Sequence record: OQ845958.1 | Length of the DNA stretch: 64,000 nt | Strand: one strand, 5' to 3' | Source: Escherichia phage pEC-M719-6WT.2 | Part shown: in pieces, positions 22,652 through 27,515 of the stretch | How positions within the stretch are numbered: position 1 is the first letter of the stretch | Layout: each line of letters starts with the position of its first letter | Made by a program: the position numbers and the translations under genes | The notes under the pieces: generated by a model | What the model was told of the DNA's origin: nothing | The model's database searches: none | The model's input: the letters and a program-made list of their open reading frames with translations, nothing else

Positions 22652-23206
22652 ATGACTTTATATGATAATCTTTTATCAAATGTGGAATGGTTTGGCGGTA
22701 GTGGTCTTGCCACTGAAACTAACACAGTTCTTTATAGAATCCGCCGCGACTTGGGCTATTCCAATGATTTCTTAAGAAGAACAACAAGTCGCGGCGATAC
22801 TACCAAATTGCCTTTTATTTTTGCTTTAGCTGAAGACCTTTCTTTCGCAGATGCCTTGGAAATTATTGATGTAAATCTGGGTATTCAACGAGTGGAATTC
22901 GCTGGACTACGTTATTCAGTATATGCTTTAAACGAACCAAGTGATTATAAACAGCTTACTAATGCGGACGATGATGACCATTTGGTATGTTATTTGATGT
23001 TAGAAAATGGTGACCACTTTGGAATGGTTGACCGCCGTCCAGCTTATACTGATATTAAAAATTATGATAAAGATGAGCTTCTTGATTTGGCGGCTGAGTA
23101 TACATTAGAGGGTCGTAAACGGAAACGTAAGCTTAATCGTTTTATTGCTGAATGTCGTGAATATGCTAAAGGGGTTCAAAATGCGAACGTTATATCTGCC
23201 AAGTAA
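22652..23206 (+). CDS. hypothetical protein with FIAEC C-terminal tail
   Basis: ATG after SD GGAGAGGAG; ORF-track start is an upstream TTG. Confidence 0.55.
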   Translation: MTLYDNLLSNVEWFGGSGLATETNTVLYRIRRDLGYSNDFLRRTTSRGDTTKLPFIFALAEDLSFADALEIIDVNLGIQRVEFAGLRYSVYALNEPSDYKQLTNADDDDHLVCYLMLENGDHFGMVDRRPAYTDIKNYDKDELLDLAAEYTLEGRKRKRKLNRFIAECREYAKGVQNANVISAK

Positions 23207-23540
23207 ACCAGAAAAATTTGTATACGCAGACAAGATTGATAAAGACCTTATGCCAGCATTTGGGGCTCTGTCCATATGCATCGTTGGGGTTATAATGGTG
23301 GTGCTTTGTGGGGATATGGATATCATTAGTGTTGGAGTTGCCTGGGCGCTAATAATCGCAGCTCCTTTTATTACGGTCCTGAGTATGATATTGATAAATG
23401 TGTGGCATCAAAATCATATGAATAAAGGATATCGTGGGCGAGTTAAAGAGTGGGAACAAAAATGTATTTCCCTACAAGAAGAGCACAAAATTAAATGTGC
23501 CGAAGAATTTATTAAGGAGGTTCGTAATGGAACGGCCTAG
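23181..23540 (+). CDS. membrane protein with EEFIKE C-terminal tail
   Basis: 119 aa from ATG 23181 (alternative 23163); two hydrophobic segments. Confidence 0.5.
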   Translation: MRTLYLPSKPEKFVYADKIDKDLMPAFGALSICIVGVIMVVLCGDMDIISVGVAWALIIAAPFITVLSMILINVWHQNHMNKGYRGRVKEWEQKCISLQEEHKIKCAEEFIKEVRNGTA

Positions 23541-23880
23541 TCTTACATCACATGTTTATCAATTGGCTGAATATGATATTGGTGCCAATTTATTATTAGG
23601 GATTGCCACCGGTATGCTTGGTGGTTTGGTTGGTCTGGTAATGACCACGGTTATGGCTGCAATCGAGGGAGTCATGCCTATTGAGATGGGCTTCTTTATG
23701 ATAATCGCTCCGGCTGTTGTGGCTTATTTTATCCCTGTTGTGTATGATATCTGTCACACAAATGCCTTGAATGCTCCTAGTCGGAAGAGATACGCTTCAG
23801 CAATGGCTGAGTATAATAAGTTCCTAGACAAAACAAAACGTAATGACCTTGAAACCTTTATTAAGGAATGTAAATCATGA
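23527..23880 (+). CDS. membrane protein with TFIKEC C-terminal tail
   Basis: 117 aa from ATG after SD GGAGG; hydrophobic core. Confidence 0.55.
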   Translation: MERPSLTSHVYQLAEYDIGANLLLGIATGMLGGLVGLVMTTVMAAIEGVMPIEMGFFMIIAPAVVAYFIPVVYDICHTNALNAPSRKRYASAMAEYNKFLDKTKRNDLETFIKECKS

Positions 23881-24167
23881 ATAAAATTGAAATTGCTATC
23901 CCCAAGTATTATGATGAGAAATCTGCAGAAAAAGCTATCTATTCTCTTCTAAATAAGACCTCTGAAATTGAAAAACACTGTGAAGAAATCGCAGATGAAT
24001 ATGGTATCCAATTCGGTACCGGTGATTATGGTTCAGGCCGTACATATTATCCTGTCGGTTATGAGTGCTCCCAGTGGTTTAAAGATGAAATTGAAAACAA
24101 CGGCGGCGAAGTTGAAAACGGTGTCGTTACAGTTGGTGCTTGGGTCTCCTCTTCGGCAATGTGCTAA
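23877..24167 (+). CDS. small protein, WVSSSxxC-tail family member 1
   Basis: 96 aa ending GAWVSSSAMC; tandem paralog array. Confidence 0.6.
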   Translation: MNKIEIAIPKYYDEKSAEKAIYSLLNKTSEIEKHCEEIADEYGIQFGTGDYGSGRTYYPVGYECSQWFKDEIENNGGEVENGVVTVGAWVSSSAMC

Positions 24168-24176
24168 GGAAACGCT

Positions 24177-24458
24177 ATGATGAATGATTACCGTAAAAAT
24201 AAAGAACTGGCTAACGCAGTAAATGATATCCATAAAGCTATTCGTCGTGCCGAGGAAATTGCAAACAAATATGAGACTCATTTTAATATATACCCTGCTC
24301 GCGGTATGGGCGGTGACTATTATTCTCCTGGTGCCTTGAAAGCTGACCTTGCCCATTGGGAAGAACATGGCCATCCTGAATGGGCTATTGTTAACACTCA
24401 TGACTATACAACTGACCTGGAAAATGGCGGATGGGTGTCCTCCTCTTCTGAATGTTAA
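24177..24458 (+). CDS. small protein, WVSSSxxC-tail family member 2
   Basis: 93 aa ending GGWVSSSSEC. Confidence 0.6.
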   Translation: MMNDYRKNKELANAVNDIHKAIRRAEEIANKYETHFNIYPARGMGGDYYSPGALKADLAHWEEHGHPEWAIVNTHDYTTDLENGGWVSSSSEC

Positions 24459-25120: not shown

Positions 25121-25222
25121 TTTAATCACAAGGATGTGATAAGAAAATTATGTACAAGATTTAGTATACAAGTCTAAAGAAACGTAGTATCATTATCTTT
25201 GTCAACTAATGAGGAAAATATT

Positions 25223-26182
25223 ATGATGTTAGTTATTGGTTCTCGTGCATTACATAACGCTGGTCTGATTGAAAGTCAGAAAATTGAAAACTCTGATTGG
25301 GACTTCATCGCAGACCAAGGTTCCTGGAACAGCTTTAAAACCCAGATGATGGGACAACACGTGCATGTGGATAACCCAGATGTTCAAGCTTTTAAATGTA
25401 TGCACAATGGTAAAGAAACCTATTTTGAAGCGTACATCGTCCGCGCACTGACAAGTGTTCGTGAATTGACTGATGAGTTACAAGAGGAAGATTTTACCTC
25501 CAGTTATCGTCTGCTCAAATATGCGAAGGCAAATATTCAGAAAGACCGTCTATCTGGTTTTTACTGGGCAACTCCTGATATTTGTCTGGCAATTAAATTG
25601 TCTCATCGTTACCTGAAGAACAATCCATTCTTCCTGAAGACCATGAGTCATATTAATTACCTTCGCAATAAGGGTGTTGTTCTTAATGACGAACTGCAGA
25701 AAATCATGCTGCAACGCCAGGCAGAAACATTGTCGTATAGTCACCCTAAACTAGACGTGGGCAAGAAAACTTTCTTTAATGATACAATCTATACCCTTGA
25801 CCATGACTCCATCCACGAGGCCGTGGCGCTTGCTGATAAGCCTGCATATAAGTTCTATATGAAGGATGATTCAGAAGTCATGACCTCGCGTGAAAAATTT
25901 GAAGCACTCCCTGAGATTATTAAACTGGCAGGGGTTTATGAAGAAGCATGTGTGCTCGCTCTGGAGCGTTCGCAGGTTCCTAATGAGTTCAATATCTCTC
26001 CATCTGTGAGCTTCCATATTGCGCTAGAAAAAGTCTGTACCTCCATTACTTCTGGATGGTTCCGTGAGTACGCCTGGGAACATTACCAGGAAGTGGTTAA
26101 TATGTACAACACCCTGGGCCGCGAAGACTATGTTAAACGTTTCAAGGCTAACCAACATTTAATTCGTCCTTTCGAAAAATAA
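25223..26182 (+). CDS. hypothetical protein
   Basis: 319 aa from ATG after SD GAGGAA; same initiation-region sequence as next gene. Confidence 0.6.
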   Translation: MMLVIGSRALHNAGLIESQKIENSDWDFIADQGSWNSFKTQMMGQHVHVDNPDVQAFKCMHNGKETYFEAYIVRALTSVRELTDELQEEDFTSSYRLLKYAKANIQKDRLSGFYWATPDICLAIKLSHRYLKNNPFFLKTMSHINYLRNKGVVLNDELQKIMLQRQAETLSYSHPKLDVGKKTFFNDTIYTLDHDSIHEAVALADKPAYKFYMKDDSEVMTSREKFEALPEIIKLAGVYEEACVLALERSQVPNEFNISPSVSFHIALEKVCTSITSGWFREYAWEHYQEVVNMYNTLGREDYVKRFKANQHLIRPFEK

Positions 26183-26241
26183 GTGTGTACAACAAAGTAG
26201 GACTATGACACAATGGTCCCACAATCAATGAGGAAAATATT

Positions 26242-26928
26242 ATGAACGGTCCGAAAACTTTTAATAGTCAAGCTCGTGCAGTTGGTGGTTTTGCACATAA
26301 CGTACAAAATGACCAAATCAAAAATGAACCAATGTTCTTTAACTGTGATTTGAGTTTTGCTTGGGATAATGGTGGCCCAATCACTCGTAGCTTTATTGCC
26401 AATCTCCCAATTGATTGGACTAATCAACATGTTGTATTTGATTCCCGGGTTCATATGCTGATGCCTGGTTGGTATCCCGCTATCCCAGGTTATCACCATG
26501 ATGATGTGCCACGTCCGGATATTCCGGTGGGTCAACACTTTATTACTGCAGGCCAACCTGATTATGATAATCCTCGATACTATTCTGAACATATTCTTGG
26601 TCTTGTTAACGCTGATGTGTGTCCTACTTATTTTGCAACCGGAACTGCACAATTTAGTCAGATTCCTGAAGGCGAACTTATCTATCGTCAGTGGCATAAA
26701 GAAGTTCTGGAAAAAATTGAGTCCAATGAATTAACCAAGTGGGATGCTCCTGACCGCACATTGCTCCAGTTTGATTGGCAGACATGGCATACAGGTTCTC
26801 GCGCAGTAAGTAACGGGTGGCGCTGGTTTGGTCGTGTGTCTCGTAATACTGACCGTGTTAAAAAGATTACAAATGAAATCCGCGTTAATGCTCAAGTATA
26901 TCTGGAATTCCCTATGGAGGGCTGGTAA
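26242..26928 (+). CDS. hypothetical protein
   Basis: 228 aa; SD GAGGAA; no motif recognised. Confidence 0.6.
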   Translation: MNGPKTFNSQARAVGGFAHNVQNDQIKNEPMFFNCDLSFAWDNGGPITRSFIANLPIDWTNQHVVFDSRVHMLMPGWYPAIPGYHHDDVPRPDIPVGQHFITAGQPDYDNPRYYSEHILGLVNADVCPTYFATGTAQFSQIPEGELIYRQWHKEVLEKIESNELTKWDAPDRTLLQFDWQTWHTGSRAVSNGWRWFGRVSRNTDRVKKITNEIRVNAQVYLEFPMEGW

Positions 26929-27515
26929 TGGCCCTTTATGAGCCTGGGTGCATGGGTGTTGATGTAAACTTCATCCGCCGGGCAGAAAATGCAGGTATAA
27001 TTGTATCAAGAGACGAATTTATGATTACCAAAAAATATTGGGCGAACCTTGATGATGGTGATGAAGGAATCAAGGTGGAAAATGTTGATTGGTCGCGATG
27101 CAATCGTCATGTGAAAGAGCTTTTAATTAAGGAATATAAAATGGGATACATCATTAATGGGCATCAACCAGAACCGCTCAAAGAACAGACACCCGACCCA
27201 TTAATTTCTTATAGCAAGAAATATGGATTTCGTACCTGGAGTGATGAATTTGATAAGTTAATTTGTTCCAGGTTTTATGCCTGGGCTGGAATCTTATTTT
27301 TACCATTCCTGTGGTTTTTCTTGACAGGCAAAAATGAAGCACCCGTGGCTGTAATGGGTGCGTGCTTTTCTACTGCTCTCGCTGGGCTTATTGCATCATT
27401 TTTATGGACTATGGTTATTGAAGTACCTTTTCGTATTTCTAAAGTTAAAAAGGTATATGACGATATCACTAAGAAAAATACATTGAACTCCTTTATTGAG
27501 GAATGCCGTAAATGA
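26928..27515 (+). CDS. membrane protein with SFIEEC C-terminal tail
   Basis: 195 aa, TAATG overlap, hydrophobic C-terminal half. Confidence 0.6.
   Translation: MALYEPGCMGVDVNFIRRAENAGIIVSRDEFMITKKYWANLDDGDEGIKVENVDWSRCNRHVKELLIKEYKMGYIINGHQPEPLKEQTPDPLISYSKKYGFRTWSDEFDKLICSRFYAWAGILFLPFLWFFLTGKNEAPVAVMGACFSTALAGLIASFLWTMVIEVPFRISKVKKVYDDITKKNTLNSFIEECRK

Follow-up and report, generated by a model that had tools for sequence, protein, structure and literature searches.

A C-terminal peptide shared by the T4-type e.5, e.4, e.3 and e.2 proteins is probably selected as protein and overlaps the next gene's Shine-Dalgarno sequence only secondarily

Introduction

Why should the ends of neighbouring early genes of a phage encode nearly the same short peptide, over nucleotides that in several cases also serve the initiation of the following gene? 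The question is raised by four genes at 22652-27515 of the window, by which we mean the whole 64,000-nucleotide (nt) stretch of Escherichia phage pEC-M719-6WT.2 (OQ845958.1) that was analysed. The original prediction, made from the letters alone, described a common FI(K/E)EC C-terminal tail and offered two readings of it: either the four proteins are paralogs that have kept the tail, or a conserved translation-initiation module is merely read as protein in the frame of the upstream gene. Our results favour a third explanation, which we regard as probable, namely that the four proteins, counterparts of T4 e.5, e.4, e.3 and e.2, share a C-terminal peptide that is itself under selection, that the overlap with the Shine-Dalgarno (SD) sequence of the next gene is secondary, and that the peptide would probably act in docking on the cytoplasmic side.

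The window comes from a T4-like phage. The 5-kb stretch with the four genes is 95% identical in DNA to Escherichia phage vB_EcoM_RZ, and many T4-like phages of the Gaprivervirus/Dhakavirus type are 90-95% identical to it. The open reading frames (ORFs) at 22652-23206, 23181-23540, 23527-23880 and 26928-27515 all exist on the + strand, between e.6 and nudE/e, and by the annotation of SP18 and T4 combined with PHROG profiles they are the counterparts of e.5 (phrog_8788, 5e-111), e.4 (phrog_2604, 6.8e-43), e.3 (phrog_2330, 8.9e-46) and e.2 (phrog_2203, 3.8e-65), respectively. Comparison with T4 proteins by phmmer links e.4 (3e-13), e.3 (9e-6) and e.2 (3e-12) directly to their namesakes. The window e.5 is joined to the T4-type e.5 by profile alone (hhalign 57%, 133 columns), a weak link, and belongs to a divergent sub-family. 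The gene order e.6, e.5, e.4, e.3 ... e.2, a 78-aa gene, nudE and e is the same in SP18, RB69 and T4; the four e genes are contiguous in T4, whereas about 3 kb of other genes separate e.3 and e.2 in the window. Hydropathy gives two transmembrane (TM) segments each in e.4, e.3 and e.2 and none in e.5, so that three of the four are indeed membrane proteins, as had been predicted. Searches of Pfam, NCBIfam and PDB sequences returned no matches for the four proteins or for e.6.

Results

The tail reads L-N-R-F-I-A-E-C-R in e.5 (184 aa, soluble; 23132-23158), A-E-E-F-I-K-E-V-R in e.4 (119 aa, two TM; 23499-23525), L-E-T-F-I-K-E-C-K in e.3 (117 aa, two TM; 23848-23874) and L-N-S-F-I-E-E-C-R-K, directly before the stop, in e.2 (195 aa, an N-terminal soluble domain plus two TM; 27483-27512), with the motif sites at 23141 (RFIAECR), 23508 (EEFIKEV), 23857 (ETFIKECKS, then stop) and 27492 (NSFIEECRK, then stop). 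In a six-frame translation of the window FI.EC occurs three times, always at these gene ends, and FI[AKE]E[CV] occurs just at these four gene-end sites. The DNA pattern TTTATTRMKGAR has 5 matches where 0.46 are expected, and in none of 100 shuffles were there as many. The motif is restricted to the block after e.6: T4 1-50 kb holds none, and two matches elsewhere in the window are probably due to chance. A 190-aa gene at 34040-34612, which ends in ESYVSLCRKHWLELTS before its stop, is a loose match beyond the e cluster and is likewise probably fortuitous.

The tail is thus present in all four proteins as FI.EC or FI.EV, but two of them continue past it. The gene ending at 23206 had been said to end in RFIAECR, which in fact lies 16 residues before the stop (the text after the motif is EYAKGVQNANVISAK), and the gene ending at 23540, said to end in EEFIKEV, has RNGTA after FIKEV. 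The proposed 13-nt consensus TTTATTAAGGA(A/G)(T/G) fits the sites at 23508 and 23857 but not the other two: TTTATTGAGGAAT stands at 27492, and TTTATTGCTGAAT, which contains no SD, at 23141.

To compare tails more widely, loci were collected from IMG/VR and GenBank phages by anchoring on e.6, since a single e.4 protein as anchor retrieved only near-identical phages. The comparison set consists of 30 related loci (numbered with L below); 59 distinct tails were used for codons and 46 non-redundant tails for a position table. By these alignments the consensus is hydrophobic-x-x-[F/W/Y]-[I/V]-x-x-C-R-[K/R/G], conserved at the protein level across the Straboviridae. Among the 46 tails, position -3 is hydrophobic in 37, the aromatic residue is Phe in 41, Trp in 3 and Tyr in 2, the next is Ile in 35 and Val in 11, Cys is found in 38, and Arg (44) or Lys (2) is followed by Lys, Gly or Arg. 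The codons behind these residues vary. The aromatic position is encoded by TTT (52), TTC (7) or TGG (5), with TAY in a Providencia phage; seven different codons are in use at the Ile/Val position; Cys is TGT (34) or TGC (30), Arg is CGN (27) or AGR (30), and position -3 is Leu by CTN as well as TTR, or I/V/M/F. Because synonymous and codon-family changes keep the residue and not the bases, what is conserved is the amino acids.

Tails of this kind occur in phages of Serratia (Winklervirus), Aeromonas (Tulanevirus), Enterobacter (Karamvirus) and Providencia (Gualtarvirus), and in RB69 (Mosigvirus); the Providencia phage keeps the tail although its e.6 is only 32% identical. In Aeromonas CC2 the tail is degenerate, and in Citrobacter CfP1, whose e.6 is 30% identical, none was seen after that gene. 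All relatives of the window e.5 family keep FI[AKT]ECREY. In T4, e.5 has FVKECREY (the protein ends in EKFVKECREYVKAITIPSK), e.4 has FVKESRC (ending in MKFVKESRCKSQS) and e.3 ends in KEFVIDCRKIK. An exhaustive HMMER search with e.2 over 1.84 billion representatives found just 12 clusters, and all nine full-length representatives (30-92% identity) end in the tail (e.g. QFIKECRK, NFIKMCRNS, NWIKGCRK and NWIEGCRK), including two which matched the query through the N-terminal domain alone.

Two disrupted genes were also seen. The T4 reference e.2 (NC_000866 67652-67960, 102 aa) is a truncated, frameshifted form of a gene whose intact 162-aa version is found in the close relatives L017 and L018, and in the 160-nt gap before T4 nudE a leftover 51-codon ORF encodes the second TM region and NFITECRKLK before its stop, overlapping the nudE start. 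In an e.2-less phage (L016, 7636-8251) e.5 is split by a frameshift into ORFs of 145 and 93 aa, the second of which keeps the tail.

The relation of the tail to the initiation of the next gene is close. The predicted coincidence of motif and downstream SD holds for e.4 (AAGGAGG at 23514-23520, in the K-E-V codons, ahead of ATG 23527), e.3 (AAGGA at 23863-23867, in the K-E codons, ahead of ATG 23877) and e.2 (GAGGA at 27498-27502, in the E-E codons, ahead of ATG 27512). It fails for e.5, where the motif DNA TTTATTGCTGAATGT (GCTGAA) contains no SD and the e.4 SD, AAAGGGG at 23168-23174 within the 3' end of e.5, starts 10 nt downstream of the motif's Arg codon and serves ATG 23181; an alternative in-frame ATG at 23163 is missing in close relatives. 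Stops and starts overlap by 26 nt between e.5 and e.4, 14 nt between e.4 and e.3, and 4 nt between each of e.3 and e.2 and its next gene, in the latter two as ATGA (23877-23880 and 27512-27515). With genes packed so that stops and starts overlap, the upstream gene has to accommodate the SD in its final codons.

One explanation for the tail is that a conserved module of SD, spacer and ATG is merely translated in the upstream frame, the resulting peptide being functionless in itself. Three of the four window genes have the SD of their successor within the motif, and it falls in motif codons in 57 of 89 distinct tail contexts in which its register was scored; the free x-x positions readily spell an SD (K-E as AAGGAA, E-E as GAGGAA, K-G as AAAGGA, with C-R-K as TGCAGGAAA being the alternative), and in e.4, with the shortest distance to the next ATG, the Cys is missing. 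A fixed distance from motif to start was, in spite of this, not found. The SD falls in the two free codons (AAG GAA, GAG GAA, AAA GGA) in 31 contexts, with 17-23 nt from the Phe codon to the ATG; in the Cys-Arg-basic codons (TGC AGG AAA and similar) in 26, with 25-28 nt; and wholly downstream of the motif in 23, with 32-121 nt (in the remaining 9, mostly with miscalled downstream ORFs, it could not be assigned). The distance thus ranges over 17-121 nt with the SD in three places, and where the SD is in the C-R-K codons the tail is two residues longer (CRKIK or CRKLK, then stop), so that the SD-to-ATG spacing is kept.

A module of this kind would conserve nucleotides over residues, and the reverse is observed: the TTT/TTC/TGG/TAY, TGT/TGC, CGN/AGR and CTN/TTR switches, including those from Phe to Trp or Tyr, keep the kind of residue rather than the bases, and the Phe, the Ile/Val and the hydrophobic residue at -3 lie outside any SD. 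Nor is the motif found only where a downstream SD is required. All e.5-type proteins keep it where it is not an SD; the gene at 9845-10153 of L025 (LFIAKCRAK, then stop) keeps it ahead of a 29-nt spacer with its own AGGAGG and then gene e; and in Aeromonas phage phiAS4 (L028) the gene at 7631-8494, which ends in MFVDYCRRTAPKRD, keeps it with a 79-nt gap to the next called start. Conversely, among the other window genes whose 3' end must hold the SD of the next gene, 35 of 42 have unrelated endings. The reading as an initiation module is thus largely refuted, and we consider it very unlikely. From the upkeep of the motif away from the SD, the three registers, the residue-level conservation and the differing endings of the control genes, we conclude on sequence grounds that the SD overlap is secondary, an accommodation by dual coding, and does not explain why the tail is conserved.

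Conservation of amino acids over nucleotides would also fit a signal read from the nascent chain: like an arrest or coupling peptide, the C-terminus would influence in cis the ribosome terminating on it and set re-initiation on the overlapping downstream gene. The motif lies at most 22 residues from the stop and would be inside the exit tunnel at termination, where stops overlap starts as ATGA. However, its distance from the stop varies, from about 6 to 22 residues, it is kept where an untranslated spacer of 29-80 nt follows the stop, and it bears no likeness to known arrest peptides; we judge a role in cis to be extremely improbable.

If the tail is conserved as protein, the proteins could simply be tandem paralogs in which it is the slowest-decaying remnant of an ancestral small membrane protein, in which case the finding would be an ordinary one. 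Some kinship does exist. BLASTP aligns e.4 with e.3 over 84 residues, tail included (E=4e-6), there are weak PHROG cross-matches, again including the tail, of e.4 to phrog_2330 (e.3) and of e.3 to phrog_2203 (e.2), and the arrangement in tandem and the common architecture of two TM segments plus tail point the same way. With the tail trimmed, hhalign gave 88% for e.4 against a further family, f16, 42% for e.3 against f16, 31% for e.3 against e.4 and 30% for f14 against f16, with controls at about 0. TM segments may, however, produce spurious low-level profile matches, and the similarity does not extend to all carriers. After trimming, e.2 and both types of e.5 score at most 10% against everything else; against the two-TM proteins no higher score is reached by the soluble e.5-type proteins of 184-287 aa or by the soluble families of about 100 aa (f12, f15, f19 and f22), and the N-terminal soluble domain of e.2, about 110 residues, has no counterpart in the small two-TM proteins. 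Alignment upstream of the tail, which the original prediction had proposed as the check, therefore gave a divided answer: a weak two-TM kinship of e.4 and e.3, and for e.5 and e.2 nothing beyond the tail.

In the variable block after e.6 and before nudE/e, at least 15 families separated by phmmer carry the tail, both membrane and soluble: small two-TM proteins of the inner membrane, e.5-type proteins that are soluble and about 200 aa long, and shorter soluble ones of about 100 aa, the soluble carriers including proteins of 73-102 aa and one 161-aa protein of a Providencia phage. Because of this number of separate families and the low trimmed scores, the tail appears to be common to otherwise unrelated-looking proteins, and distant paralogy is plausible, as far as the profiles indicate, only within the two-TM group. 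Moreover, a tail kept while the bodies diverged past recognition would need selection on the tail itself. Plain tandem paralogy of all tail genes is accordingly unlikely in our view, even though the prediction of paralogs with a conserved tail was correct about the protein-level tail. Concerted evolution as the sole cause of the similarity was also considered and set aside, as orthologous tails retain family-specific flavours across phages.

The tails also mark the places at which genes have come and gone. In the Yersinia phage ZN18 type of locus (L016) e.3 runs directly into nudE and e.2 is precisely deleted. The junction follows the e.3 end as far as GATTGCAGGAAA and the e.2 end from TGCAGGAAATTAAAATGA on, and as it switches there from one gene end to the other the crossover must lie within the 9-nt identity given above for C-R-K, which holds these codons and the SD. 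This junction is present in a single piece in at least 12 phage records. JS98-like phages have no e.4, and their e.5 ends in REYAKEVQNGTA before the stop, a hybrid of the module AAAGGGGTTCAAAATG internal to the window e.5 and the module TAAGGAGGTTCGTAATG at the end of e.4; the e.4 indel is bounded by the copies of this ribosome-binding site (RBS)/start module at 23168-23183 and 23514-23529. The left edge of the block of about 3 kb between e.3 and e.2, in turn, is precisely the point where the e.3 tail meets the ATGA. Clean gains and losses of whole genes have their breakpoints exactly at the repeated tail/SD/ATG junctions. Within the same block an identical 19-nt RBS/start module, AATGAGGAAAATATTATGA, is found at 25208-25226 and 26227-26245, preceding a 319-aa DUF7277/DUF7275 protein and a 228-aa protein that ends in YLEFPMEGW.

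These breakpoints recall the PeSL cassettes of T4-type phages, intergenic units of an early promoter and a stem-loop (Arbiol et al. 2010, PMC2839356; Comeau et al. 2014, PMC4122927), whose recombination crossovers can fall at the SD (PMC2839356). As in those cassettes, short boundary repeats in hyperplastic regions end in SD and start, genes come or go as a whole when copies recombine, and breakpoints lie in the repeated element (the e.2 deletion of L016 and the e.4 indel of JS98-like loci). Unlike them, the repeats of the e cluster lie within coding sequence, encode a selected peptide, contain no promoter and offer a microhomology of only 9-17 nt. Between 21900 and 28300 there are 17 promoter-like sites compared with 18 in shuffles, none of them at the tail junctions, and the only hairpin is the one in the e.6/e.5 spacer. 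It could be argued that the junction is kept mainly as a recombination linker, a coding analogue of the PeSL cassettes, and that the peptide is tolerated and not used. The precise deletion and its recurrence among records, the modules bounding the e.4 indel, the edge of the 3-kb insertion at the e.3 tail and the precedent of crossovers at the SD would all agree with this. On the other hand, the tails of one genome differ at many bases, those of distant phages are too low in DNA identity for homologous exchange while the peptide is still kept, and selection for future evolvability would be weak next to the residue-level constraint observed. We hold a linker role of this kind, as the main reason for conservation, to be quite improbable.

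The remaining features of the region are as follows. Upstream of the four genes, on the + strand like them, lies the 197-aa e.6 homologue (22016-22609), which is 75% identical to T4 e.6 and named e.6 in SP18 and T4; it has tblastn matches in 1110 phage records and always stands just upstream of tail-bearing genes. Its own C-terminus, I-E-E-Y-I-N-S-L-K (22580-22609), is conserved and loosely tail-like, with Leu at the position of the tails' Cys, and the e.6 proteins of L019-L033 have ends such as YLASLK, YIESLKA and YINGLK. What follows e.6 is not an overlapping gene but the GC-rich hairpin of the e.6/e.5 spacer (22614-22631), with a terminator-like stem, AAGGGGGCAAAGCCCCCT, and an equivalent at the same place in T4; the e.6 end may be related to the tails or coincidental.

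Relative to T4, the insert of about 3 kb (23877-26928, + strand) contains four small genes ending in W-x-S-S-S-x-x-C, a 75-aa gene, the DUF7277/DUF7275 protein and the 228-aa protein. The four small genes (23877-24899; 96, 93, 65-70 and 74 aa) stand in tandem and end in W-[VIFY]-S-S-S-x-x-C or WYPSSC before the stop, each then followed by TAAGGAA. Similar Cys-terminal genes are found in L010, L019, L021, L022, L027, L030 and L033, and they make up a second conserved-ending family (phrog_899), whose members stand interspersed among the FIxxCR genes of many T4-like phages. The 228-aa protein (26242-26928) has no Pfam or NCBIfam match and a highly conserved C-terminus; in every examined locus with a long e.2-type gene its gene immediately precedes e.2 and overlaps it at TAATG, which suggests that the two form a conserved gene pair. 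Downstream of e.2 are the 78-aa gene (phrog_2900; 27512-27748, + strand), whose start overlaps the e.2 stop, and after it nudE (27708-28199) and the lysozyme gene e (28226-28717).

Discussion

Our results suggest that the e.5, e.4, e.3 and e.2 counterparts end in, or close to, a peptide that is maintained for its own sake. In the membrane proteins the segments after the second TM segment are rich in Lys/Arg, and since the positive-inside rule would place such segments in the cytoplasm and e.5 is soluble, the tails of all carriers are probably cytoplasmic. The most economical reading, and in our opinion the most likely one, is a common docking or recognition function on that side of the membrane, by which early accessory proteins of diverse kinds would be tied through their tails to one phage or host partner, making contact by the near-invariant Phe, Cys and Arg. 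The presence of the same short motif on unrelated bodies in at least 15 families, membrane and soluble, is what would be expected of a docking motif.

Several points weigh against this interpretation. The probable topology depends on the positive-inside rule as read from sequence, the docking function is inferred only, and the partner is putative. AlphaFold2 models from shallow alignments had a low predicted local distance difference test score (pLDDT) of 48.7 for e.5 and 51.4 for e.3, and although the tail region is helical in both, the assignment is weak at such confidence. The 18-residue tail region is not significantly amphipathic, having a mean hydrophobic moment of 0.307 compared with 0.255 in shuffles and reaching the top decile in 5 of 46 tails. 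The e.4 families, in which just 17-19 nt separate the Phe codon from the next ATG, have replaced the Cys (FIKEV, FVKES-R-C and FVKEI), so that the initiation signal can apparently override the peptide. Lastly, the deletions show that repeats and breakpoints coincide; any adaptive value of this is putative.

Two specific ideas about the tail were rejected. One was that e.6 is a PspA-like scaffold which binds the tails as PspA binds PspC; hhalign gave a probability of 0.2%, and Pfam and PDB gave nothing. The other was a eukaryote-style lipidation box of the CaaX type, with which the distance of the Cys from the C-terminus, varying over 1-16 residues, does not agree. A more far-reaching version of the docking reading, which we put forward tentatively and regard as possible rather than probable, would make of the tail an address tag, portable between proteins and read in the cytoplasm. 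In this version hydrophobic-x-x-F-[I/V]-x-x-C-R at the C-terminus would be recognised by one and the same partner from phage or host, the block after e.6 would be one system with interchangeable heads on a common tail, and new accessory genes would join it by in-frame recombination onto pre-existing tail/SD/ATG junctions.

The four genes themselves are known T4-family ORFs (PHROGs 8788/2607, 2604, 2330 and 2203 for e.5, e.4, e.3 and e.2). The window agrees with T4 in profile membership, order, sizes, the two TM segments of e.4, e.3 and e.2 and the tail, and differs from it in the divergent e.5, in the spacing of e.3 and e.2 and in having an e.2 that is neither split nor truncated as in the T4 reference. 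A limited literature search found no functional work on e.2-e.6, and within the same limits no description of the shared tail, of its dual coding with the SD or of a role in deletion junctions was found; these features may therefore be new. An SD embedded in the upstream ORF and an ATGA stop/start overlap are general means of translational coupling in phage operons, and the e.5/e.4, e.4/e.3, e.3/next and e.2/next overlaps with their SDs in upstream codons conform to this. Ordinary coupled junctions of the window, in contrast, have no common peptide, whereas here a selected peptide and an SD are superimposed. Several T4 proteins carry C-terminal tails that bind the clamp gp45. By analogy with these, which are likewise short C-terminal motifs on unrelated bodies, the e-block tails may have a common partner; the consensus is a different one, however, and many of the e-block carriers are membrane proteins. 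This is an analogy and not membership.

In T4-type phages the e.2-e.8 block is a classic group of conserved early ORFs to which no function has been assigned, and a motif defined at the level of residues and common to membrane and soluble members gives it a testable handle. The locus is also a clean natural case of dual coding: the same codons serve a selected peptide and the next gene's SD, and the two trade off against each other, as exemplified by the movement of the SD between registers and by the loss of the e.4 Cys where the ATG is closest. Finally, the shuffling of genes at boundary repeats in T4-type genomes is extended by these junctions from the intergenic PeSLs to coding junctions.

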